Below, one piece after another: positions 22-13,376 of a DNA stretch of 14,172 bases. The position numbers and the translations under genes are program-made. The stretch spans positions 1 through 14,172 of the forward strand of contig JAYVCD010000125.1 in NCBI GenBank assembly GCA_043750125.1, given 5' to 3'. Positions within the stretch are counted from its first letter, which is position 1; the number at the start of each line of letters is the position of its first letter. The stretch comes from Archangiaceae bacterium. Lineage in GTDB: Bacteria > Myxococcota > Myxococcia > Myxococcales > Myxococcaceae. Under the pieces are notes generated by a model. It had not been told where the DNA came from. It saw nothing but the letters and a program-made list of their open reading frames with translations, and did not search any database.

Positions 22-2088
22 CTAGAGCCAACCCAGCGGCTCGAAGCGCAATCGCAGTGCCCCGTCGCGCAGCAGCTTCTTCACGAAGTTCAGTCCCGCG
101 CGGGTGCGAGCGGCGTCCTCCGGGCCCGTCGCGCCGAGCGCCAGCGCGATCGAATGTTTGCCGTCGATTTTCGAACACAGGGCTTCCATGTCCACGCCTT
201 CGATCATCGGAATGCTCAAGGTCCGCGGCTTCACTTTTCGATTCATCGGGGCAAAGCGCAGTTGCAGCAGCGGCTTGCCTCCTGAGAGCGATCGGCTGGC
301 GTTGAATTCCCAGCGGGGGGAAAGAGCCGGGAACAGCTCGGCGGCGGTGGGCTGCTCGACCCGGTACGGGCCCAGGTAGAGCACGTCCATCGCGGTGTAC
401 AGAAAGCACTGGAGCGCTTCTTTCGGCGACTCGACAATCGGCATTCCGCGCAGGTTGAACGAGGTGTTGAGGACGACCGGAACTCCGGTTCGCTCGCCGA
501 AGGCCGAGATCAACCGGTGGTAGAGCGGGTCGACCTCGCGGTCCACCGTCTGAATGCGGGCGCTGCCGTCGACGTGGGTAACAGCGAGGACCCGGTCCGC
601 CCACGCCTTGCGAACGGGAGCCACAATCAACATGTACGGGCTCTCGCCCTCGAGCTCGAAGACCTCGTTCGCCCGCTCGGCGGTCACGCTGGGGGCAAAA
701 GGGCGAAAGCCTTCTCGAAACTTCACCTGAGCGTTGACCACGTCCTTCATTCGCAGCGGGCGGGAATCGGCCAGGATGCTTCGATGGCCGAGCGCGCGGG
801 GCCCCAGCTCGCTGCCGCCCTGGACCCACCCCAGGATGCGTGAGTCGGCGAGCTGTTCGGCAGCGTCCTCGGCCAGGGCCTGGTCGTCGGGCAGCTTGCG
901 GTACCGGATGCCGCAGTCTTCCAGCAGCCGGTGAATGCCTTCCGCCGGGTAGGTTCGGCCCCCAAAAGCGTGGCGAATCGGTTTGATCGGGCCGCCTGAG
1001 AGCTGCAGATGTCCGTAGTAGGCAAGGCCGATGGCCTGCCCATTGTCGGCGGCACACGGCTGCACGAAGACCCGGTCGAAGATTTTTTTCGAATGGATGA
1101 TTCCGTTGGTGACCGAGTTCAACGCGACCCCACCGGCGAGACAAAGGTTGGCGGCGCCCGTCGCGCGCTTGAGCTGTTCGGCCAGGTGGACCATGGCCTG
1201 CTCGGTTTCGATCTGCACCTTGTACGCGAGGTCTCGGGCGAACTGACCCTGCCCGTCCCGCGCGAGCAGCCCCAGCTGTTCCTCGTTGGTGAAAAAAAAC
1301 TCGTAGACCCCCGAACGCCGCGCGAACTCGTAGAACTTCGAGAAGTCGAGGTGGAAGCCGTCACGCCCGACCCACGACTCGGCCAGTTCCGCGTTTGGGC
1401 GCCCGTACGGCGCGAGTCCCATCGTCTTCCCGGGGTCACCGATTTCGATCGTTCGGTTCTTGAAGCCGAGCGCAACGGTAACGAACTCGTACATCAGCCC
1501 GATCCCACCCCAGCGATCGGCGGCGGTCTTGTCCGACGGCGAGCTGCCGAGCATCTCGGCCGTGTAGCGGTTCTTGAAAATTTCTTTGTAGTTGCCCTTT
1601 CGATTCTCGAAAAAATAGCCGGTCTCAGCTTCCGAGGCGCTCGAGCCGTCGGCGGTGACGATCGCCGAGCCGTCTGCGTCGACCACCAGCACGGCAGCCT
1701 TTTCGAAGGGGCTTGCGTGAAACGCGGAAAGCGCGTGGCAGAAGTGGTGGGTTCCACCGGCGGGTTGATCGGCCACGATGATCTTCTTGCGATCGATCGG
1801 GAGGAAGCCGCCCCAGTCGACGCTGAACCAGTCGTTCTGGGGCACGACGATCGCGTCCAACTGGTCGAGCGAGATGCCCGCGGTCTCGAGGCAGTAGGTG
1901 ACCGACGCCCACGGGAAATAGCCCCACCGAAAGTTGTACCAGAACCAGTGGCTGCGTTGGTCTGCGGGCACCGCGTGCTTGACGCGCGTGAGCCGCTCTT
2001 CCTCGATTGCCACCACGATCTCGCCGTCCCGAAGCAAACACGCTCCGACATCGTGACCGCCCACATAGACACCAAGCACGTACGCCAT
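22..2088 (-). CDS. Carbamoyltransferase, NodU/CmcH/TobZ family (CT1), ~688 aa, with C-terminal extension
   Basis: Motifs GGHDVGACLL, AIEEERLTRVK, HHFCH (HxxxH), VVDADG, GKTMGLAPYG, LAGGVALN, DNGQAIG, ELGPRALGHRS, VKFREGFRPFAP, HVDGSARIQTV, LNTSFN. Start set at ATG 2088 (MAYVLGV aligns with the paralogue N-termini; AAGGGG lies 4 nt upstream) rather than TTG 2154. Stop TAG at 22-24. Confidence 0.95.
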   Translation of the reverse strand: MAYVLGVYVGGHDVGACLLRDGEIVVAIEEERLTRVKHAVPADQRSHWFWYNFRWGYFPWASVTYCLETAGISLDQLDAIVVPQNDWFSVDWGGFLPIDRKKIIVADQPAGGTHHFCHALSAFHASPFEKAAVLVVDADGSAIVTADGSSASEAETGYFFENRKGNYKEIFKNRYTAEMLGSSPSDKTAADRWGGIGLMYEFVTVALGFKNRTIEIGDPGKTMGLAPYGRPNAELAESWVGRDGFHLDFSKFYEFARRSGVYEFFFTNEEQLGLLARDGQGQFARDLAYKVQIETEQAMVHLAEQLKRATGAANLCLAGGVALNSVTNGIIHSKKIFDRVFVQPCAADNGQAIGLAYYGHLQLSGGPIKPIRHAFGGRTYPAEGIHRLLEDCGIRYRKLPDDQALAEDAAEQLADSRILGWVQGGSELGPRALGHRSILADSRPLRMKDVVNAQVKFREGFRPFAPSVTAERANEVFELEGESPYMLIVAPVRKAWADRVLAVTHVDGSARIQTVDREVDPLYHRLISAFGERTGVPVVLNTSFNLRGMPIVESPKEALQCFLYTAMDVLYLGPYRVEQPTAAELFPALSPRWEFNASRSLSGGKPLLQLRFAPMNRKVKPRTLSIPMIEGVDMEALCSKIDGKHSIALALGATGPEDAARTRAGLNFVKKLLRDGALRLRFEPLGWL

Positions 2089-2125
2089 TCGTCCCCTTGC
2101 AGGTTCGCCATCGCTGAAGGCGCAA

Positions 2126-2154
2126 AGTCTGACCCGCCCACGCTGGGTTGACAA
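2126..2154 (-). promoter_or_regulatory. Possible sigma70-type promoter for CT1 in the divergent CT1/CT2 intergenic region
   Basis: Minus strand reads TTGTCA (2154-2149), a 17-nt spacer, then CAGACT (2131-2126). The plus strand has an overlapping perfect TTGACA (2148-2153) but no good -10. The 123-bp gap between divergent genes is expected to hold promoters; this exact site is speculative. Confidence 0.25.
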
Positions 2155-2211
2155 TCAATCGCCCGGGCTTTCCCTCTTGCCCCGTACGGACCTGAGCAGA
2201 AGAATCAGGCG

Positions 2212-4281
2212 GTGCCGCTGGTTCTCGGAGTCAATTGGGGAGGGATCCAGCCGGGCGCATGCCTGTTGCGCGATGGCGCAATCGTCGTCGCCATCGAAGA
2301 AGAGCGCCTCACCCGGGTGAAGCAGGGAATCCTGGGGCCGCACCGCTGGCTTTGGCTTTGGTACAACCTGCGGTGGGGCTACTTCCCGTGGGCGTCGGTG
2401 ACGTATTGCCTGCGAACCGCGGGCGTCTTGATCGACCAACTCGACGCGGTGGTGGTCTCGCGAGACACCCTACCCTTCGGAGTCGCCTGGGAATCTTTCC
2501 TGCCCATTCACCCCGACAAGCTGATTGTCCAGAGCGAGCCCGTGGGCGCATCGCATCACTTCCGCCATGCGCTCTCGGCCTTTTACGCCAGCCCGTTCGA
2601 CAGCGCTGCAGTGCTCGTGCTCGACCCGGTGGGTTCCGAGGACACCCCTGCGGTCCCGGGGGGCAGCCGAAAAGGCGGCGAGGGCGAATCTGCGTACCTC
2701 TTCGAGGACCGGTCGGGCGCGTACCAGGAAGTCTTCAAGAACCGGTACGAAACCCAGATGACCCTTCGCGCCGGAGCCATCGAAGATCCGGCCCGCTGGG
2801 GGGGAATCGGAATGATGTCTCTGGTCGTTTCGACCGCTTTGGGTTTTCGAGATCCCAACACCCGGCTGGACAGCGGGGGCCGGACTGTGGCGCTCGCCGC
2901 GCATGGCAGCCCCAGCCCCGAGTTTGCCGATCCGTGGATCTCCGACAAGGGCTCGCACCTGGATTTTTCGCGCTTCCATCAATTCGCCCAGGACTCCCAC
3001 CTCTTCGACCTTCCGCCTGGAGACCCTTCCGCGGCGATGCCCGCGCTGTTCGATGCCCGGGCCAGGAACCTCGCCCACAAAGTCCAGCTCGAGACCGAGC
3101 GGGCGATGGTGCATCTGGCCGAGAGGCTTCGCAGTGAGACCGGGGCGACGTGTCTGTGCCTGGCCGGTGGGACGGCGCTCAACGGGGGGGCCAACAACGC
3201 AATTGTGTCTCGGGGAATTTTCGAGCACGTGTTCGTCCAACCTGCCGCGGATGACGATGGGCAGGCGATTGGACTGGCGTACTACGGGCACCTGAAGCTC
3301 TCGCGCGAGCCGATCAAGCCGATGCGACACGCGTTCGCGGGTCGGTCGTATTCGAACGATGAAATCCGGATCTTGCTCGACTCCTACCGACTCGGCTACC
3401 GCGAGCTCTCGGACGAAGGTTCGCTGCCCGATCACGCGGCTGCCGACCTCGCCACATCGCGAATCGTCGCGTGGTTCCAGGGGGGCAGTGAGTTCGGCCC
3501 CCACGCGCTGGGCCATCGCAGCATTCTCGCGGACCCACGGCGGGCCGAGATGAAGGAACAGGTCAGCGCCCGCGCCAAGTTTCGGGAAACGTACCGCCCG
3601 TTCGGGGCCAGCGTGCTCGCCGAGCGCGCGACCGAGATCTTCGACCTGCGAGGCGGGGAAAGCCCGTACATGCTGATCACCGCGCCGGTGCGAAACGAAT
3701 GGTTGGCGCGCATTCCTGCAGTGACCCACGTGGACGCAACGTGCCGGATCCACACCGTCAGCCGCGACACAGATCCGCTCTACCATTGCCTGCTCGAAGG
3801 GTTCAGTGCGCGAACCGGCGTCCCGGTGCTGCTCAACACCTCGTTCAACCTGGCCGGCCTGCCCATCGTCGAATCACCGCGCGACGCGCTCCAATGCTTT
3901 TTGTTTTCGGAAACCGACGCGCTCTACCTGAACCACTTTCGAGTCGAGCAGCCGCCGCTGAGCGCCCTCTTCCCGCAGATGAATCGGCTGTGGGAGCTCG
4001 TCGCGCCCGCATCCAGTCCCGGCGAGCTGCTCTTTAGCTTCACCCCGATGAAGGGGGGGCAGGCCAAGCCGAAGTCGGTCGTGGTCCCGGCAATTCAGGG
4101 AATACAGATGGAACGCCTGTGCGCCGGAATGGACGGAGTGCGCTCGCTCGAGCAGCTGCTCGAGGAAGCGGGGCCGGAAGCACTCCACGATTCCGACCGG
4201 GCGGCGCAGGTGGTGCGCTTCGTCAAACGGGCGCTGCGCGAGAACGCGCTCCACCTGCGCTTTGGGTCCGACGTGCTGTAG
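2212..4281 (+). CDS. Carbamoyltransferase-like protein (CT2), 689 aa; divergent paralogue with degenerate catalytic motifs
   Basis: Collinear with CT1/CT3 over its length (AIEEERLTRVK, HHFRH, LAHKVQLETE, LGHRSILADPR, ESPYML, LLNTSFN). Changes: HD->IQ, GKTMGLAP(Y/F)G->GRTVALAAHG, GPRALG->GPHALG, RPFAP->RPFGA, RIQTV->RIHTV. GTG start, TAG stop, no frameshift. Confidence 0.92.
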   Translation: MPLVLGVNWGGIQPGACLLRDGAIVVAIEEERLTRVKQGILGPHRWLWLWYNLRWGYFPWASVTYCLRTAGVLIDQLDAVVVSRDTLPFGVAWESFLPIHPDKLIVQSEPVGASHHFRHALSAFYASPFDSAAVLVLDPVGSEDTPAVPGGSRKGGEGESAYLFEDRSGAYQEVFKNRYETQMTLRAGAIEDPARWGGIGMMSLVVSTALGFRDPNTRLDSGGRTVALAAHGSPSPEFADPWISDKGSHLDFSRFHQFAQDSHLFDLPPGDPSAAMPALFDARARNLAHKVQLETERAMVHLAERLRSETGATCLCLAGGTALNGGANNAIVSRGIFEHVFVQPAADDDGQAIGLAYYGHLKLSREPIKPMRHAFAGRSYSNDEIRILLDSYRLGYRELSDEGSLPDHAAADLATSRIVAWFQGGSEFGPHALGHRSILADPRRAEMKEQVSARAKFRETYRPFGASVLAERATEIFDLRGGESPYMLITAPVRNEWLARIPAVTHVDATCRIHTVSRDTDPLYHCLLEGFSARTGVPVLLNTSFNLAGLPIVESPRDALQCFLFSETDALYLNHFRVEQPPLSALFPQMNRLWELVAPASSPGELLFSFTPMKGGQAKPKSVVVPAIQGIQMERLCAGMDGVRSLEQLLEEAGPEALHDSDRAAQVVRFVKRALRENALHLRFGSDVL

Positions 4282-4296
4282 CCGTGCGGCTACAGC
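4275..4296. repeat. Perfect 10-bp inverted repeat spanning the convergent stop codons of CT2 and CT3
   Basis: GCTGTAGCCG (4275-4284) - TG - CGGCTACAGC (4287-4296). Each arm contains one gene's TAG (4279-4281 on +, 4290-4292 on -). A short T-containing tract (GTTTGT) follows on the + strand. Confidence 0.8.
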
Positions 4297-6341
4297 GTTT
4301 GTGAGCCAAACCGCAGCCCGATCGCGCCTTCCCGCAGCAGCAGCTTGATGAACCGGACGACCTCGACGATGCGGTCAGGCACCGCCGCACCCGGCCCCGC
4401 TGTTTCCAGGGCCACCCCGAGCGAACGTGTGCCGTCCATCCCGCGGCAGACGTGTTCCATGTCCACTCCCGCAATCGCGGGGACAGGAATCGCGCGGGGC
4501 TTCACGTTTCTGCGCAGAGGCGAAAATCGGATTTCGACCCGCTTCTCGCCGCTGGGTTGCGCCTGGCTCACCACGAGCTCCCAGCGCCGGCGCAGCGCGG
4601 GAAAGAGCTCGGACGGCCGCGGAGGCTCGATTCGGTAGCGGCCCAGATAGAGGGTGTCCATCTCGGTGTAGAGAAAACACTGCAGGGTGTCTCGCGGGGT
4701 CTCGACGATCGGCATTCCCCGCAAGTTGAACGAGGTGTTGAGCAGCACCGGAACCCCGGTCAGCTTCGAGAACTCCGAGATCAGCGCGTGGTAGAGCGGG
4801 TCGACCTCGCGTTCCACCGTCTGGATCCGCCCGGTACCGTCGACGTGGGTGATCGCCGGAACGCGTTCGATCCATTCCTTTCGCACCGGCGCGACGATCA
4901 GCATGTACGGGCTGTCGCCGCCGCGCAGCTCGAACACCTCGGTCGCGCGCTCGGCCAACACACTCGGAGCGAAGGGTCGAAAAGCTTCCCGGAACTTCAC
5001 CCGGGCGTTGACGATGTCCTTCATCTCGGGACGACGGGGGTCGGCGAGAATGCTGCGATGGCCCAGCGCGCGTGGGCCCAGCTCGCTGCCGCCCTGAAAC
5101 CAGCCGAGGATCTTCGACGCGGCCAGATCGGCGGCGGCTTCTTTCGCGACGGCCGCGTCGTCGGGCAGCGCGCGATAAGTGATACCGCACGAGTCGAGGA
5201 ACCCCAAAATCTCGAGATCCGAATAAGTCCGGCCACCGAACGCATGCCGCATCGGCTTGATCGGAGCGCGGGAAAGCTTCAGATGGCCGTAGTAGGCAAG
5301 CCCGATGGCCTGCCCGTTGTCTGCCGCGGCCGGCTGGACGAACACCCGCTCGAACAGACCGCTGTTCTGGATGATCCCGTTCGCCACGGAATTCAACGCC
5401 ACGCCCCCCGCCAGGCAGAGGTTGCTCGCTCCCGTCTCGCGCTTGAGCTGCTCGGCCAGGTGCACCATCGCCCGCTCGGTTTCCAGCTGCGCTTTGAACG
5501 CGAGGTCCTTCGCCTGCTGACCGAAGTGCCCTTCGTTGGCCAGCATTCCGCTGCCCTTCTCTTCGTTGACGTAGGTGTCCCAAAGACCCGAGGAACGCGC
5601 GAATTCGAGGAAGCTGGAAAAGTCGAGCTGGAACCCCTTGTGCCGGATCCACGGCGCTTCGAAGTCGGCGTTGGGGCGGCCAAAGGGAGCCAGGCCCATC
5701 GTCTTCCCGGCATCGTCGAAGCCGGTGACGCGCGATCGGAATCCGAGCGCCATCGACACCACCATGTACATCATTCCGATTCCGCCCCAGCGCGCCGGGT
5801 CGCCGGGGGCATGCAACGGCTCGATCTGGTATCGGTTCTTGAAGACCTCTCGAGGGCTGGCGCCGCGCGTTTCGAAGAGGTAGCCGGTTTCCGATTCACC
5901 CCCGCGCTCGTCCTCGGATCCAATTCCGTCGACCACCAGCACTGCCGCGTGATCGAACGGACTGGCATAAAAGGCCGAGAGTGCGTGGCTGTAGTGGTGC
6001 ACTCCGCCGGGAGGCTCGTCGGCGATGATGATTTTCGAAGGGTCGATCGGCAGCAGCCCGGCCCAGTCGACCTTGCAGAAATCATCGAGCCCCTGCACGA
6101 CGAGGGCATCGAGCTCGTGAAGCGAAACGCCCGCAGCGCGCAGGCAGTAGGTGACCGACGCCCACGGGAAATAGCCAAACAGCGCGTTGAAGTTCGGCCA
6201 GAGGTAACGGAACGACGCAGGAATTCCGTTCTTCACCCGGGTCAGACGCTCTTCCTCGATGGCGACGACGATCTCTCCGTCGCGCAGCAGGCAGGCGCCC
6301 GGATCGTGCCCGTGATTGAAAACACCGAGAATGAGGGTCAT
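4290..6341 (-). CDS. Carbamoyltransferase, NodU/CmcH/TobZ family (CT3), 683 aa, with C-terminal extension
   Basis: Intact motifs GHDPGACLL, EEERLTRVK, HHYSH, VVDGIG, AGKTMGLAPFG, LAGGVALNSVAN, DNGQAIG, ELGPRALGHRS, VNARVKFREAFRPFAP, DSPYML, HVDGTGRIQTV, LLNTSFN. GGAG lies upstream of the ATG. Confidence 0.96.
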   Translation of the reverse strand: MTLILGVFNHGHDPGACLLRDGEIVVAIEEERLTRVKNGIPASFRYLWPNFNALFGYFPWASVTYCLRAAGVSLHELDALVVQGLDDFCKVDWAGLLPIDPSKIIIADEPPGGVHHYSHALSAFYASPFDHAAVLVVDGIGSEDERGGESETGYLFETRGASPREVFKNRYQIEPLHAPGDPARWGGIGMMYMVVSMALGFRSRVTGFDDAGKTMGLAPFGRPNADFEAPWIRHKGFQLDFSSFLEFARSSGLWDTYVNEEKGSGMLANEGHFGQQAKDLAFKAQLETERAMVHLAEQLKRETGASNLCLAGGVALNSVANGIIQNSGLFERVFVQPAAADNGQAIGLAYYGHLKLSRAPIKPMRHAFGGRTYSDLEILGFLDSCGITYRALPDDAAVAKEAAADLAASKILGWFQGGSELGPRALGHRSILADPRRPEMKDIVNARVKFREAFRPFAPSVLAERATEVFELRGGDSPYMLIVAPVRKEWIERVPAITHVDGTGRIQTVEREVDPLYHALISEFSKLTGVPVLLNTSFNLRGMPIVETPRDTLQCFLYTEMDTLYLGRYRIEPPRPSELFPALRRRWELVVSQAQPSGEKRVEIRFSPLRRNVKPRAIPVPAIAGVDMEHVCRGMDGTRSLGVALETAGPGAAVPDRIVEVVRFIKLLLREGAIGLRFGSQTL

Positions 6342-6390: not shown

Positions 6391-7155
6391 TCAAGACCAG
6401 AACCAGAGCTTTCCCGAGGGCAGTCGCCCCAGAAAGGTACCGAAGCTCATCCGCACACTGGGCGCCGGCAGGACCTGATGAAAGTTTCGGGTGTTGAACA
6501 TCACCAATTCGCCGCTCACCGGCTTCACTTGATACGAGCGGGCTCCCTTCACCACCTCGTCCTCGTAGCCGTAGTTGCCCGGCAAACGAAGCCGCTCATC
6601 GGCCGGTTCCCACGCTCGATCGTAGATGTGGGTCGCGCCTTCCTTCGGGCTCGTGAGGTAGACGTTCCAGGTGAGCTGACCTGTGACCTCGCTGATCTTC
6701 CAGCCCCGGGCTTCCCACGGGACGAAGTCGATGTGCACCGGAGACCCATTCTCGAACCGCCTGAAGACCCCGACCGCGTAATTCCCGACGTCCTCTTCGT
6801 GGGCGACCTCGATCGGACCCACCGCGTGGTGCCTCAGCATTTCGATCAAGCGAGCGAAGGGGTCGAACGCCACCGCATAAATCGACGTGAGGGACTGTGC
6901 CGCCGCAGCGGTGGCGGCTCGAAAGCCGGCCTTTTCGTCAGGCTGGAACTCGAAGCGGGCGGCGCCGATGTGACCAATCGGAGGGTTGGCATTCTTGTAC
7001 GGGGTGAACCCGTGCTGCTCAGCGGCGAAGGCCAACGTGGCGCACTCTGCTGCGCTGGCAAACCCGGGGACTCGAATGGCTGGAATTTCGTTGCGAAACA
7101 GCCGCTCGACATTGTCCGCGCTCAGCTCGCCCGCGCGATCGGATTTCCAGGGCAT
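6391..7155 (-). CDS. 2-oxoglutarate/Fe(II)-dependent dioxygenase (probable hydroxylase), ~254 aa
   Basis: Facial triad H-I-D (6735-6727) plus distal His in NTRNFHQV (6480-6478); 2OG-binding R-x-S in VRMSF (Arg 6453-6451); DSBH-type strands QLTWNVYL and GELVMFN. Start uncertain: ATG 7155, GTG 7218 (overlapping the upstream stop) or ATG 7257. Confidence 0.85.
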   Translation of the reverse strand: MPWKSDRAGELSADNVERLFRNEIPAIRVPGFASAAECATLAFAAEQHGFTPYKNANPPIGHIGAARFEFQPDEKAGFRAATAAAAQSLTSIYAVAFDPFARLIEMLRHHAVGPIEVAHEEDVGNYAVGVFRRFENGSPVHIDFVPWEARGWKISEVTGQLTWNVYLTSPKEGATHIYDRAWEPADERLRLPGNYGYEDEVVKGARSYQVKPVSGELVMFNTRNFHQVLPAPSVRMSFGTFLGRLPSGKLWFWS

Positions 7156-7210
7156 CGGAAGATTCTCAGGGCCGCCGACCCCAGCGTCAATGTGGAACCC
7201 AGCGGCAGTC

Positions 7211-10200
7211 TCACCCACGTTTGGACCCACGCACCCAATGGTGGACGAACGCTTCATCGATCACCGACACGTCGTCGTCTGAGGTGAAGGCGCGCAGCTT
7301 TTCGCGAAAGCCTCGATTGTCCAACTGAAGCTGGGCCACAGCTCCCATCGGCTGGGCCCACCGCTCGATCAAAGGCAATGGCGACCGTCGGCGCAAGGGA
7401 AGATCGAGCCGAGCCAGGGCCAACGTGAAGCGAGCCAACCAGTCATCGTACGAGGCGATTCGCACCAGCGGGTGTCCCGCAGATTCTACCCAGTCCACGA
7501 TCCGGTCGAGCGACACCCCATCGTCCCAATGGCCATTGCTGACGTGAAAGGTCCGATACCCCTCGAAGTTTTGCATCGTGATGCCGGCAAGGGTGGCGGC
7601 CACCACGTCCACCGGGATCCCGTCGAAATGGCGCGGCAGGCGGAAGTCCGGGTCGTAAAAAGAAGCAGGCGCCAGACCCGTGGTGATCACCCCGAAGAGC
7701 AGTCGGGAAATGTTGTCGTCTTCGTTGATCTGGCCGAGCAGGCTTCGATGCGGCAGCACCATTCCGCAGCGATGCACGGTGACGGGGATCCCGCAGCGCT
7801 GATGCAGGTCGCGCAGCAAGACCTCGCTGGCCCACTTGCTGGTGGCGTACCCCTCGCCGGGCCCCGAGCCCACCCCCCGGCTGGGCCATAAAGACGCGGC
7901 GTCTTCACTCTCGAGAATGGGCTCCGGTCGATTCAGGCCAGCCGCGACCCCACTCGAAGAAACGAAGTGAATCGCCTTTCGCCTTCCCTCGAGACAAAAA
8001 CGCATCACCTCGACCGTTCCGAGGACGTTGGGCTCGAACAGCTGCGCGTAGGAAAAGCCGTGATTCACCAGCGCGCCGTTGTGCAACACCGCGTCCACCC
8101 GGCCCGCGAGCGCTTCATAGATCCGGTCCGGCAGGCCGAGCCTGGCCTGCATTTGATCGCCGGCGTGGACGACCAATTGATTTTCGTTCGTCAGGCTCTG
8201 AAACCGATGGAGCAGCTCGGCCCCGCCCTTCGCGAATTGGCCCACCAACCGAGCGCGCGCAGAAGCATCGTCCGTACCGCGAACGAGGCACACCACCTGC
8301 CCGGCTCGCCCCGTGACTCTCTGAAGCAGCTCGAGAAGAAGGAAGCGGCCCAGAAAGCCGGTGGCTCCGGTGAGCAACACGATGCTCGGCTCGGCCTCGG
8401 CCCTTCGTCCACCCGCCCGCGCGACTTCCGCGGGCAAGAAAGATTCGACCCGCAGCTGGGCTGCGTCGACCCGTTGTGCGCCTTTTCCGTGAATGCGATC
8501 GAACGTCGGACGATCGGCCTGGGCCCCCTGCAGCTCTTCGACCTTTCGGACAATCGCGGCCAACGAGGTGCTGGGGTCGAGGACTTCGCCCACCGAGGGC
8601 GCAGCGCCACACGCGTCCTCGAGCAGCGAACACAACCGAACCGCGCTCAGGGAATCGCCCCCCAGCCCGACGAAGCTGCGGGAAGAATCGAGCTCCTCGA
8701 GGCTCAACCCCAGCGCAGTGGCGATCGCGGCGCCCACCCGCTGGGCCACGGGGTTCGTCGACGCACCCTCGGCGGCCTGCTTTCCTTCCACCTGACGACT
8801 TTCGATCTGGGCGTACCGCGCTTCGAGACGCGCCCCATAGGCGGCCTTCAAGGCCGGGCGCCTGGGTTTGTTGGCCTCGGTCAGCAGCCCGTTTTCTTTG
8901 GTGAACGGGGCGGGCTCGACCACGAAGTCGCGCGGCACCTCATGGCTGGGCAGCCTCGCCCCCTTCGAAACGCGATCGACTTCGCTTCGCAGCAAACGCT
9001 TGATTTGAATCTCGCGATCGCCGTCGGCCGTGGGTCGGCGCGCCAGCTCGACGCTCACCGCTTCTGCGTTCGGAACCACGACCGCCAGCAGGTAGGCCCG
9101 CAGCGCATTTCCGTAGAGGTAGATCTGCTCGATGAACGGGCTGCTGGTCGCGAAGAGCTCTTCCAGCCTCGAGATGCTCACGAACTCGCCTTGCGACAGC
9201 TTCACCACGTTGTGCTTCCGATCGATCCACACCAGGTGGCCCGGGCCCCGCTCTTCCATGATGTCGCCGGAATGCAAAAAGCCGTCGGGGTCGCGAAGCC
9301 GCTCGCTCGCGTCCGCATTCTTGAAATACCCGGGCGTCGCATGCGCAGTCTTGACGAGCAGCTCCCCTCTGGGAAACGGCCGATCGTTGAAGCTGTACCC
9401 GAGCTCAGGAACGTCGACCAACTTGTACGCGACGCCAGGCTGAACGCGATCGTTGATGGTCACCAGCCCAAGCTCGCTAAAGCCGTAGCCGATTCGAATC
9501 GAGACCTGAAAGCAGCGTTCGAGAAAGATCAGGACCTCGGGCGCGGTCGGCGCCGCATTGGTCTCGATCAAGCACAAGCGGTCTCCGAGGAAGGTGTGGC
9601 GCATCTCGGCCCTGATCGTCTCGGCCAGGCCTGCGTCCTCTGCACCCGGGTTCCCGCGTTTGACCAGTTGGCTTTGAAAGTGCTGGTAGATCATTCCTGA
9701 GACGCGCGGCATCAAAGTCATCACGGTGGGGCGCACGATCCGAATGTCTTCGAACAGCGTGGACATGTCGCTTCGGGGAACGAAGTGGGTCACTCCTCCA
9801 CGCATCAATGCGCGGTAGGTATTGAAGCGACCGGTCACGTGACACAGCGGCAGATAGCCGACGGTGATCCCCGGCACGGGCACTTCGAGAAGCACGTACC
9901 GGACGCGGTTGACCCAGCTGCTCTGCCGATGGGTGACACCCTTGGGCGCGCCGGTGCTGCCCGAGGTGTACATCACCGTGACGAGAGGATCGCTTCCCCT
10001 GGCCAGTACCCCGACCGCGACAGGACCCGCCGTCCGGCCAATGGCCTCCACTTCTTCGATGGTGCGGGTTTTCTGGCCCCCGCCCCACCCCCGATCCACT
10101 TCGTCGGGCAGACGGACATCAATCACAGTCACGCTGCGAAGGGTGGCGCAGCTCTCCAACACCCCTCGAAGTGTGTCGAGTTGGTCGGCGCTGCAGACCA

Positions 10201-10642
10201 GACACGCCAGCTCGGTTTCAGTCGCAATCTGCGCGAGCTCTTCTGCCGCCAGGTTCGATTGCAGGGGCACCGAAATCGCGCCGAGGTAAAGGCAAGCCAG
10301 GTCCGCCACCACCCAGTCCGTGCTGGCGAAGCCGCAGATCCCGACGAAGTCACCCGCGCGCACCCGGTTTTGGTGGAACCACCCCCCGGCGAGGGCGCAG
10401 ACGCGGTCCCACAGCTGGCGATAGCTGAGCGTTTCGAAGCGCGGGGGCCCCTCGAGGTCGCGCGTCCCCAGGCAAGGGCGGTCTGCGTAGCGCTTGCATG
10501 CGTACGCCACGTACTCGATTCCGGGGTGTTCTTCGTCGCGCAGAAACGCGAGCACTTCGTCCGAAGCAATCGTGTCACGCAGCTGCGGGTCGGTCTGAAG
10601 CAGAGTTGCCGCTCGTTGTAATGCGGCGTCGAAGTCAGACAC
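7211..10642 (-). CDS. car: Carboxylic acid reductase (CAR-type A-T-R protein), ~1143 aa
   Basis: CAR-typical segments YADRPCLG, RFETLSY..LW.RV, SDMSTLFEDI..VRPT, YKLVDVPELGY..DRPFPRGELLVKT, DR..NVVKLSQGEFV, NGLLT..K. A3 motif YTSGSTGAPKG; PCP LGGDSLSA (Ser 8653-8651); R domain LLTGATGFLG and GYATSKW (YxxxK). Start GTG 10642 overlaps the upstream stop; alternative GTG 10663. Confidence 0.93.
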   Translation of the reverse strand: MSDFDAALQRAATLLQTDPQLRDTIASDEVLAFLRDEEHPGIEYVAYACKRYADRPCLGTRDLEGPPRFETLSYRQLWDRVCALAGGWFHQNRVRAGDFVGICGFASTDWVVADLACLYLGAISVPLQSNLAAEELAQIATETELACLVCSADQLDTLRGVLESCATLRSVTVIDVRLPDEVDRGWGGGQKTRTIEEVEAIGRTAGPVAVGVLARGSDPLVTVMYTSGSTGAPKGVTHRQSSWVNRVRYVLLEVPVPGITVGYLPLCHVTGRFNTYRALMRGGVTHFVPRSDMSTLFEDIRIVRPTVMTLMPRVSGMIYQHFQSQLVKRGNPGAEDAGLAETIRAEMRHTFLGDRLCLIETNAAPTAPEVLIFLERCFQVSIRIGYGFSELGLVTINDRVQPGVAYKLVDVPELGYSFNDRPFPRGELLVKTAHATPGYFKNADASERLRDPDGFLHSGDIMEERGPGHLVWIDRKHNVVKLSQGEFVSISRLEELFATSSPFIEQIYLYGNALRAYLLAVVVPNAEAVSVELARRPTADGDREIQIKRLLRSEVDRVSKGARLPSHEVPRDFVVEPAPFTKENGLLTEANKPRRPALKAAYGARLEARYAQIESRQVEGKQAAEGASTNPVAQRVGAAIATALGLSLEELDSSRSFVGLGGDSLSAVRLCSLLEDACGAAPSVGEVLDPSTSLAAIVRKVEELQGAQADRPTFDRIHGKGAQRVDAAQLRVESFLPAEVARAGGRRAEAEPSIVLLTGATGFLGRFLLLELLQRVTGRAGQVVCLVRGTDDASARARLVGQFAKGGAELLHRFQSLTNENQLVVHAGDQMQARLGLPDRIYEALAGRVDAVLHNGALVNHGFSYAQLFEPNVLGTVEVMRFCLEGRRKAIHFVSSSGVAAGLNRPEPILESEDAASLWPSRGVGSGPGEGYATSKWASEVLLRDLHQRCGIPVTVHRCGMVLPHRSLLGQINEDDNISRLLFGVITTGLAPASFYDPDFRLPRHFDGIPVDVVAATLAGITMQNFEGYRTFHVSNGHWDDGVSLDRIVDWVESAGHPLVRIASYDDWLARFTLALARLDLPLRRRSPLPLIERWAQPMGAVAQLQLDNRGFREKLRAFTSDDDVSVIDEAFVHHWVRGSKRG

Positions 10643-13376
10643 CCGCGCTCTCTTTCTGGGCACGTTCCAGACAGCCCCGAAGGCAGGCCGCCAGCGCGGC
10701 GACGTTGTGTGGACGCAGCACCTCGAAATGCGTCCCGGGGATCTCGTGGTTTTCGATCTTCGGGGCCAGCTCTTCCCAGGCCCAGGGCGGAGGCAACGGC
10801 CGGTGTGGCCTCGGAATCACCTGATCGCGCGCTCGCAACAGCGTCAGTCGATCGGGGTAAGCCTCAGGAACGCAGCCGGACAGCGCCCGCATGTGGGTGG
10901 AAAACAATCGAAAGGCGATTCGCAGCTGGGTCAGCCCACCCTCTTCGATCACGTAACCCAGAGGTCGCAGCTTGCGCAGGATCAACTCGATCCGAGCGTC
11001 CGGCCCCAGGCCGCTGAACTCTTCGAGGGTCCCCTCGATTTCGGTGCCGAGCGTGCGCCCCATGATCACCGTGAACCAGAACGACAACACCTCAGGGTCG
11101 AAGTCCCTCGACGCCTCGCGCATGCGGCCCCGGGTGGCTGCGTGGGTGGGTCGGGCTTCAATCAACCCGAGCAATGCGACCTTCTGACCCTGGCTGCGCA
11201 GCAGCTGAGCCATCTCGTAGACGACGGCTCCGCCGAAAGACCACCCCGCCAGAAAGTAGGGACCCTGAGGCTGCACTCCCCTGATGACCCCGACATAGAA
11301 GGCGGCCATCTGCGCAACGCTGCCCAGGGGCTCTTGCTGACCGTCGAGGCCCTGCGCCTGAATCCCATAGACCTGCTGATCTTCCCCGAGCAGGTGCGCC
11401 AATTCGACGTAGCAAAAGACGTTCCCGCCGATCGGGTGGACGAGGAACAGGGGGGGCCGGGTTCCCCGGTGCAACGTCACCAGCGGCGACCACGGCTCGG
11501 GGAGGCCGCCCTGCCGCAGCAGCGCCGCGAACTGTTCGATCGTCGGGCGGTGGAACAAGGCCGAGAGCGGCAGCGCCCGCGCCTGCCTCATCTCGATCTG
11601 CGCCATCAATCGCAGCGCCAGCAGCGAGTTTCCGCCCAACTCGAAGAAGTCGTCGGTCACGCCGATGGGGTGGATCCCAAACAGCCCTTCCCACAGCCTC
11701 ACCAACTCGAGCTCGAACGCGTCTCGCGGCGAGACCCACTCATGGCTGAGCCGAGGGCGTGCATCACCCGGAACCGGCAACGCCCGCCGGTCGATTTTCC
11801 CACTGGGGGACAGCGGCAGGGCTTCGAGCGTCACGAACGCCGAAGGCACCATGTACTCGGGCAGCTGCTTTTGCAGGTGCGCCCGCAGCTCGCTCGTCGA
11901 CGGCGCCTGCTCGCCCGACGAGGCCAGGTAGGCGACCAACCGCTTTTCGCCGGGCGTGTCCTCTCGAGCCACGATCACCGTCTCGCGCACGGCCGGATGT
12001 CTCAAGAGCACCGCTTCGATCTCGCCCAGCTCGATCCGAAAGCCGCGAATCTTTACCTGGTGGTCGACCCGGCCCAGGTATTCGATTGCACCGTCGTTGC
12101 GGTAGCGCGCCAGATCGCCGCTCTTGTAGAGGCGTGCCCCGGGTTGAATCGAAAACGGATCAGGGACGAACTTCTCGGCGGTCAGTCCGGGCTGGTGAAG
12201 GTAGCCCCGCCCCAGGCCGGTTCCCGCGATGTACAGCTCTCCCACCGCGCCGATCGGAACCGGTCGCAGCTCGCGGTCGAGCAGATGAATCCGGCAGTTG
12301 GCAATCGGACGACCAATCGGAATCGAACGCGGCGGGGTTCCCCGCTCACACGTCCACGCCGTCACGTCGACCGAGGCTTCGGTGGGCCCATAGAGGTTGT
12401 GAAGCGCAGCAAAAGCGCACCGCCGAAAGAACCGCTCGGACAATTCGACCGACAGGGCTTCGCCACTGCAGATCATCTGGCGCAAGGAAGTGCAGGCCTC
12501 GAGCCCCTCGGCCTCGACCAGGGCCCCCAGCATCGAAGGCACGCAGTGCATCGTGGTCAAGGCCTGATCCTGAATCAGCTGCACCAGGTAATCAGGATCC
12601 TGGTGACCGCTCGGCCGCGCTACGACCAGCCGCGCGCCGGTGATCAGCGGCCAGAACAGTTCCCACACCGAGACATCGAAGCTCAAGGGAGTCTTCTGCA
12701 GAACCCGATCGACTGCCCCAAGCCGATAGGCTTCCTGCATCCAGAGCAAGCGGTTGCAGATGCCCTGGTGGGTGTTCATCGCGCCTTTGGGTCGTCCGGT
12801 CGAACCCGAGGTGAAGATGACGTACGCCAGCTGCTCGGGGCGCGATCCACCCACCGGTCGATCTTCCCGCTCCTGGCCGATGCGCGCCCAGTCGCGGTCC
12901 AGACACACCCGCACCGCAGCATCTGCCGGAACCCGTGGAAGCAGCCGGTCTTCAGTGAGCAAGACTTTGACCCGGGCGTCTTCAGCCATCCACGCCAGCC
13001 GTTCGGAGGGGTAGGACGGGTCGAGCGGCACGTACGCGCCGCCGGCTTTGAGGATTCCCAACAGCGCGACGATCATCGCCAGCGATCGCTCGACACAAAT
13101 TCCAACCAGCACCTCCGGCCCGACTCCCAGACCCTGAAGGAAGTGCGCCAGTTGATTGGCTCGCCGATCGAGCTCGACGTACGTCAGCTGCGTTCCCTCG
13201 AACGTCACCGCCACCGCGTCGGGGGTGCGCGTCGCCTGATCCTCGATCAGCTCATGCAGGCATCGGTCTTTCGGATAATCGCGTTCTGTCGAGTTCCATT
13301 CGAGGAACAGCTGTCGTTGCTCTGCGGGGGCGAGCAATTCCAGTCCTTCGACCCTGAACTCAAGGTCCTCAGCCAT
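10635..13376 (-). CDS. Stand-alone NRPS-like protein, A(Ser)-T-TE, 913 aa, no condensation domain
   Basis: A-domain cores LTYVEL, LKAGGAYVPLD, YVIFTSGSTGRPKG, FDVSVWE, NLYGPTE, GELYIAG.GLGRGY, YKSGD, GRVDHQVKIRGFRIELGEIE, SGKIDR. T domain FFELGGNSLLA (Ser 11627-11625). TE motifs LFLVHPIGG, GWSFGG (Ser 11240-11238), GTHF (His 10730-10728). Specificity code read by eye is DVWHISLVDK, a Ser-type code. Confidence 0.95.
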   Translation of the reverse strand: MAEDLEFRVEGLELLAPAEQRQLFLEWNSTERDYPKDRCLHELIEDQATRTPDAVAVTFEGTQLTYVELDRRANQLAHFLQGLGVGPEVLVGICVERSLAMIVALLGILKAGGAYVPLDPSYPSERLAWMAEDARVKVLLTEDRLLPRVPADAAVRVCLDRDWARIGQEREDRPVGGSRPEQLAYVIFTSGSTGRPKGAMNTHQGICNRLLWMQEAYRLGAVDRVLQKTPLSFDVSVWELFWPLITGARLVVARPSGHQDPDYLVQLIQDQALTTMHCVPSMLGALVEAEGLEACTSLRQMICSGEALSVELSERFFRRCAFAALHNLYGPTEASVDVTAWTCERGTPPRSIPIGRPIANCRIHLLDRELRPVPIGAVGELYIAGTGLGRGYLHQPGLTAEKFVPDPFSIQPGARLYKSGDLARYRNDGAIEYLGRVDHQVKIRGFRIELGEIEAVLLRHPAVRETVIVAREDTPGEKRLVAYLASSGEQAPSTSELRAHLQKQLPEYMVPSAFVTLEALPLSPSGKIDRRALPVPGDARPRLSHEWVSPRDAFELELVRLWEGLFGIHPIGVTDDFFELGGNSLLALRLMAQIEMRQARALPLSALFHRPTIEQFAALLRQGGLPEPWSPLVTLHRGTRPPLFLVHPIGGNVFCYVELAHLLGEDQQVYGIQAQGLDGQQEPLGSVAQMAAFYVGVIRGVQPQGPYFLAGWSFGGAVVYEMAQLLRSQGQKVALLGLIEARPTHAATRGRMREASRDFDPEVLSFWFTVIMGRTLGTEIEGTLEEFSGLGPDARIELILRKLRPLGYVIEEGGLTQLRIAFRLFSTHMRALSGCVPEAYPDRLTLLRARDQVIPRPHRPLPPPWAWEELAPKIENHEIPGTHFEVLRPHNVAALAACLRGCLERAQKESAGV

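Follow-up and report, generated by a model that had tools for sequence, protein, structure and literature searches.

A GdmN-type C-terminal domain with a predicted RiPP recognition element-like fold in three tandem carbamoyltransferases of an Archangiaceae bacterium

Three tandem carbamoyltransferases with a C-terminal tail

The window analysed here is one entire contig of 14 kb (JAYVCD010000125.1, C125) from a 6.17-Mb genome bin of an Archangiaceae bacterium, which comprises 460 contigs and is 89 % complete. Its list of open reading frames (ORFs) contains three NodU/TobZ-type carbamoyltransferase paralogues side by side, designated CT1, CT2 and CT3 (Table 1), each of which continues beyond the end of its catalytic family with a C-terminal domain, hereafter the tail. 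As argued below, the tail corresponds to the auxiliary domain of the carbamoyltransferases GdmN and NovN and is predicted to have the fold of PqqD and of the recognition elements (RREs) of peptides made ribosomally and then modified post-translationally (RiPPs); its role is probably to pair subunits.

CT1, CT2 and CT3 share 54–64 % identity over the whole protein and contain both Carbam_trans_C (E = 5e-68, 8e-62 and 9e-70, respectively) and Carbam_trans_N (E = 5e-38, 1e-24 and 2e-38) in a Pfam search. The metal ligands named for GdmN, the geldanamycin 7-O-carbamoyltransferase, in PMC9633730 (H133, H137, D156 and D333) correspond in a phmmer alignment to CT3 H115, H119, D138 and D341, and this His, His, Asp, Asp set is invariant across CT1–3 and 95 homologues. 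With their Kae1-like and YrdC-like domains, the three proteins are class III (TobZ/NodU-type) O-carbamoyltransferases, having this catalytic core in common with TobZ, VtdB, NodU and CmcH; however, TobZ (576 aa), VtdB (chain of 597 aa), NodU and CmcH stop at the family boundary, without a tail. The longest ORF of CT1 starts with a TTG at 2154; the database version of the protein (P0013) has 688 aa, matching the ATG at 2088, and from this ATG the divergent intergenic region between CT1 and CT2 spans ca. 123 bp.

Carbam_trans_C ends at residue 600 of 710 in CT1, 579 of 689 in CT2 and 571 of 683 in CT3, leaving 110, 110 and 112 residues beyond it. An earlier note on this DNA had described a ca. 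100-aa extension on all three paralogues, at about 340–22, 3960–4281 and 4610–4290; its presence is confirmed and these positions are close to those in Table 1. The strings that it quoted are likewise present in the translations, both D(V/A/T)LYL..(Y/F)R(V/I)E, RWELVV, VEIRFSP and AIPVP and the further motifs ME(A/R/H)(L/V)C..(I/M)DG..S(I/L) and F(V/I)K..LR(D/E)(G/N)A(L/I).LRF. In an alignment without large gaps, the tails show 41–45 % identity to that of CT1, with 35 of 121 columns invariant, and a tail profile matches CT1 at 31–366 (minus strand, E = 6e-43) and CT2 at 3934–4278 (plus strand, E = 9e-43). Searched alone against Pfam at E up to 10, none of the tails matched PqqD (PF05402) or any other family, apart from a single DUF5703 match on the CT3 tail (E = 0.17) that was taken as noise.

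Table 1. Coordinates of the genes and tail features in the window.
Feature	Coordinates (strand)	Extent	Basis or remark
CT1	22..2088 (-)	688 aa from ATG 2088; longest ORF to 2154, 710 aa	Pfam Carbam_trans_N/C
CT1 tail	25..354 (-)	Residues 601–710 of the 710-aa ORF	GdmN-type auxiliary domain, predicted RRE-like fold
CT2	2212..4281 (+)	689 aa	Pfam Carbam_trans_N/C
CT2 tail	3949..4278 (+)	Residues 580–689	
CT3	4290..6341 (-)	683 aa	Pfam Carbam_trans_N/C
CT3 tail	4293..4628 (-)	Residues 572–683	Tail chosen for modelling
Long beta-hairpin of the CT3 tail	4524..4583 (-)	Residues 587–606	DSSP of models
PqqD-like core of the CT3 tail	4308..4496 (-)	Strand 616–619, helices 628–633, 641–646 and 650–670, strand 674–678	hhalign, DSSP
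WelO5-like 2-oxoglutarate (2OG)/Fe(II) oxygenase, H-x-D motif	6391..7257 (-)		Pfam PF22814, E = 1e-8; 'PVHIDF'
A-T-R protein (adenylation, carrier, terminal reductase; CAR-like)	7211..10663 (-)		Pfam AMP-binding, PP-binding, NAD_binding_4
A-T-TE single-module protein, like a nonribosomal peptide synthetase (NRPS)	10635..13376 (-)		Pfam AMP-binding, AMP-binding_C, PP-binding, Thioesterase
MacB/FtsX-type ABC permease, truncated by the contig end	13369..14172 (-)		Pfam FtsX, MacB_PCD

Predicted fold of the tail and its counterpart in GdmN and NovN

AlphaFold2 modelled the CT3 tail alone, from nine aligned tails, with a predicted local distance difference test score (pLDDT) of 88.9 and a predicted template modelling score (pTM) of 0.79, and full-length CT3, from 95 homologues, with values of 94.0 and 0.93. 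All blocks from residue 570 to 683 of the full-length model score at least 80, and confidence does not drop on passing from the catalytic core into the tail. Because it folds confidently both alone and inside full-length CT3, we regard the tail as more than a chance extension; in the model it is joined rigidly to the enzyme, without a flexible linker. DSSP assigns to it strands at 580–583, 587–593, 600–606 and 616–619, helices at 628–633, 641–646, 650–653 and 655–670, and a terminal strand at 674–678. The second and third strands belong to a long hairpin, and the remainder includes a PqqD-like core containing the MDGTRSL and FIKLLLREGAIGLRF motifs.

Structures of GdmN (PDB 7VYJ, 7VX0 and others) and NovN (PDB 9S2T) are available. 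In a PDB sequence search with CT3, the alignments with GdmN (682 aa) and NovN (687 aa) stop near residue 567, which leaves each of them ca. 110 extra residues of its own, and the alignment with TobZ (E = 3e-68) ends at 570–572, the family boundary. The view in the earlier note that characterised relatives are shorter is therefore correct for TobZ and mistaken for GdmN and NovN, which are long forms. The three-tail profile, searched against PDB sequences, gave no match at E up to 10, and homology to the GdmN tail was visible only via a full-length profile of 95 sequences and via structure. With that profile, the alignment to GdmN runs on through the hairpin region and the segment ELYELLGAVDGTTTLGDLAKTVG, reaching residue 664 of the tagged chain (644 in native numbering). 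When the tail model was used as the Foldseek query, the first ten matches were GdmN chains (probability 1.00, TMq 0.59, 108 columns, 20 % identity), with NovN at rank 12; the best match of the full-length CT3 model was also GdmN (E = 2.4e-50, TMq 0.73), the values for NovN and TobZ being 0.73 and 0.68.

According to PMC9633730, an 'auxiliary' domain of ca. 100 aa (D574–L674 in GdmN) occurs throughout the GdmN/Asm21/Asc21/Orf7*/NovN subclade, and the GdmN hairpin T586–L609 forms a four-stranded intermolecular sheet. Deletions in this hairpin are described there as abolishing both the dimer and activity, and GdmN truncated to M1–L575 as lacking activity in vivo and being insoluble in vitro; for TobZ, a monomeric state is reported. 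CT1–3 likewise have an auxiliary domain, of 110–112 residues, directly after the YrdC-like domain, and its predicted fold is that of GdmN D574–L674. From the aligned ranges, the CT3 hairpin would be the positional counterpart of GdmN T586–L609.

Relationship to PqqD and RiPP recognition elements

We also compared the tail with 48,161 PDB representatives in a structure scan independent of Foldseek. The best matches of the modelled tail after carbamoyltransferases are RiPP recognition elements: the ranking, with scan score and extent in brackets, runs from NovN (9.7; 95) and the C-terminal domain of Rv2067c (9.3; 92) to a lasso-peptide B1 protein (6jx3; 7.5; 83 of 85), TbiB1 (7.5; 82 of 84), ThcOx (7.3; 94), the PbtF RRE (7.0; 82 of 86) and PqqD (5sxy; 7.0; 88 of 94).

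For comparison by profile, a PqqD set was drawn from PF05402 matches in 151 genomes of the same phylum; 27 of the 30 fetched loci were translated, after dropping two near-duplicates (L025 and L029) and one cut by a contig end (L032). Aligned by hhalign with 95 tails taken from alignment A4, these 27 PqqD-like sequences gave a probability of 94.9 % (P = 4.6e-8, score 42.3) over 60 columns, covering CT3 614–677 (tail residues 43–106), and the nine-sequence alignment A3 used in place of A4 gave 92.1 %. The control with a reversed PqqD alignment reached 4.0 % (P = 0.01), and 20 column-shuffled alignments did not exceed 0.6 % (smallest P, 0.088). Profile and predicted structure thus bear out the PqqD/RRE-like winged helix proposed in the earlier note, and we regard the tail, on these grounds, as probably a divergent member of that superfamily. 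It resembles PF05402 and the lasso B1, TbiB1, PbtF RRE, and ThcOx and TruD N-terminal domains in predicted fold, but differs from them in lacking a Pfam PqqD match, in its extra N-terminal strand and elongated hairpin, and in its non-RiPP context; moreover, in the closest relatives with known structures it serves to form homodimers. A canonical stand-alone PqqD-like gene exists elsewhere in the genome (G000:C353:24869-25069, L034; E = 4e-17, frame of 109 aa), unlinked to the window contig.

RRE fusions to carbamoyltransferases were in print in 2025 (PMC12710340), and this was the only relevant paper that we found in the literature on carbamoyltransferases and PqqD. No paper that we found identifies the dimerization domain of GdmN as an RRE, nor did we find, in the literature from 2023 on, any on the NovN crystal structure as a carbamoyltransferase.

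The tail among relatives

Searches with the tail itself retrieved few proteins. With the CT3 tail as query, a word-indexed search for homologues found only CT3 and P0004 among 1420 candidates, and the three-tail profile had eight matches in 1.84 billion representatives, six of them real, including CT2, and all six being C-termini of carbamoyltransferases or fragments thereof; the other two (P0008 and P0010) proved on reading to be repeat proteins and were rejected. We attribute this scarcity to fast divergence of the tail and not to rarity. The full-length search returned ca. 100 homologues of 657–740 aa, alongside short forms of 578 aa. An HMM (hidden Markov model) of nine tails matched 89 of 125 proteins, a set that counts the proteins of the window itself, two of these in duplicate; by length, it matched 82 of the 97 with at least 640 aa and two of the 23 with 540–639 aa.

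Of the 80 genome loci with the highest similarity to CT3, 20 have at least 97 residues past the family end. Ten of these match a 95-sequence tail HMM (E = 3.3e-4 or better), from six metagenome-assembled genomes (MAGs) of Planctomycetota plus L082, L081, L074 and L049; hhalign adds two tail-bearing loci (L086, 82.6 %; L050, 76.4 %) and leaves two doubtful (L104, 41 %; L054, 23 %). The extensions at L113, L087, L078, L052 and L047 (144–402 residues) gave no match with the tail profile or the PqqD profile and are different add-ons. Another kind of fusion is seen in the homologue P0116 (713 aa), with TPR-type PF14559 and PF13428 in its precomputed annotation. Hosts of the homologues include Planctomycetota, Actinomycetota and Pyrinomonadaceae (genome loci) and Nannocystaceae and Pendulispora (full-length search), and the tail is common among relatives, in several phyla. 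The earlier note had suggested an unusual mode for the family, to be given up if the extension were routine among its members. With 82 of 97 long homologues carrying the tail, and with GdmN and NovN providing solved, characterised examples of the domain, the claim of novelty fails.

No stand-alone tail domain was found in the 1.84 billion representatives or in the own genome, where the only other tail match (contig C162, E = 0.14) was rejected. The genome encodes a fourth carbamoyltransferase (633 aa; G000:C51:16489-16998; L001 1411–3312, minus strand), without a tail, adjoining an ORF that from its sequence gives the impression of a GMC-oxidoreductase-like protein.

Two tail-bearing loci in Planctomycetota MAGs, L039 (9566–11608; 55 % identity) and L110 (10001–11980; 47 %), contain the carbamoyltransferase as a single gene. 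Its neighbours encode a protein kinase, an LMF1-like protein and an M54-like peptidase in L039, and argininosuccinate synthase and a leucine-rich repeat (LRR) protein in L110. Neither locus has NRPS or RiPP genes nearby or is a biosynthetic cluster, which indicates that the tail travels with the enzyme and not with a particular partner.

Neighbouring genes and the question of a docking partner

In the rest of the window, the minus-strand ORFs of the oxygenase and A-T-R overlap by 47 bases (7211–7257), those of A-T-R and A-T-TE by 29 (10635–10663) and those of A-T-TE and the permease by 8 (13369–13376); these overlaps, which depend on mechanically assigned ORF starts, suggest that the four genes form one translationally coupled operon. 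The oxygenase contains an H-I-D motif (PVHIDFVP). Carrier-independent halogenases have a small residue after H-x instead, and the motif suggests that the WelO5-like enzyme is a hydroxylase rather than a halogenase. Given the A-T-R, A-T-TE and oxygenase set, the product is likely small and polar. Whereas GdmN and NovN have another context, the three tandem paralogues lie here in a small NRPS-like cluster without polyketide or aminocoumarin genes.

This setting bears on the proposal, made in the earlier note, that the tail serves in recognition. The partner bound in its beta3/alpha3 cleft would then be a peptide, namely a RiPP precursor encoded outside the contig, or else a carrier (T) domain, that of A-T-TE or A-T-R, so that a tethered substrate is carbamoylated. 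A class III-type carbamoyltransferase acting on a peptide substrate is known (PMC13174530), although that enzyme is fused to a protease domain and the RRE of its cluster resides on a separate partner, StdD, whereas CT1–3 carry the RRE-like tail themselves. Within the 14-kb window, however, the genes leave no space for one that encodes a precursor peptide, and RiPP enzymes are not encoded, so that a genomic association of the tail with a precursor gene and RiPP-tailoring enzymes is absent there; together with a tail that goes with the enzyme, this leaves docking onto a peptide or T-domain partner unsupported, and we consider it unlikely. A broader version, in which the GdmN-type 'dimerization domain' is an exapted PqqD/RRE domain that here might still dock the paralogues to one another or to a substrate that is a peptide or is tethered to a carrier, with carbamoylation taking place on the assembly line, appears to us slightly more doubtful.

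Probable role of the tail

The reading that we favour, with a probability of roughly 0.68, is that the tail does in CT1–3 what it does in GdmN: its hairpin would pair two subunits and be needed for a soluble, active enzyme. CT1–3 would thus be three-domain class III O-carbamoyltransferases of GdmN/NovN architecture (Kae1-like, YrdC-like and an auxiliary domain of ca. 110 residues). By analogy with GdmN, the long hairpin of one tail would pair with that of a second subunit and hold two bow-shaped monomers face to face as a homodimer, which would stabilise the enzyme and shape the acceptor pocket. The RRE fold would then have been turned to subunit pairing, without leader-peptide recruitment, and the substrate of CT1–3 would be a small molecule that the adjacent A-T-R, A-T-TE and oxygenase genes produce and that is free (released) when carbamoylated. 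A two-copy prediction with CT3 566–683 only (95-row alignment; ipSAE 0.59, 0.00 and 0.00; mark 0.42) weighs neither for nor against this.

The presence of three paralogues with the same domain side by side also raises the possibility that the tails pair CT1, CT2 and CT3 heteromerically into a multi-carbamoylation complex, instead of forming three separate homodimers. A GdmN-type interface, which consists mostly of main-chain hairpin pairing, could tolerate mixed partners. Nevertheless, the tails have diverged more than the whole proteins, which fits partner specificity at least equally well, and most homologues are single genes, as in L039 and L110; we therefore hold such a complex to be improbable. 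Less probable than any of the foregoing is a tail that serves as lid or wall of the acceptor site, or as a solubility or stability module, with no part in oligomerization. The C-terminal domain of Rv2067c, second in the structure scan, does line a substrate trough and is not the dimerization domain of that protein, but the GdmN dimer forms chiefly through the tail domain and is specifically broken by hairpin deletions.

Several observations count against homodimerization through a GdmN-like tail. We infer dimerization of CT1–3 by analogy, and identity to the GdmN tail is only ca. 20 %, compared with ca. 30 % overall for GdmN and NovN; across the consensus of 95 homologues the hairpin sequence is weakly conserved. 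The identity of CT1–3 to GdmN (29–30 %) is no higher than that to tail-less TobZ (30–31 %), so that they probably fall outside the GdmN subclade in its strict sense, and the subclade pocket tyrosine, Y82 in GdmN, is apparently not kept, lying opposite an aliphatic column by manual count in the 95-sequence profile alignment. The likeness of the tail in fold and profile to true peptide-binding RREs may fit a retained binding function. Finally, the authors of the GdmN study tie the auxiliary domain to weakly polar macrocyclic substrates (PMC9633730), and a small NRPS-like cluster is an unlikely source of such compounds.

Meaning for the family

The tail of CT1–3 is best seen as the auxiliary domain already solved in GdmN and NovN and not as a new route by which carbamoyltransferases find their substrates, so that a plausible lead had been overstated. 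The interest now lies in how RRE domains and the dimerization domain of carbamoyltransferases are linked in evolution, and in what this link means for genome mining based on RREs.

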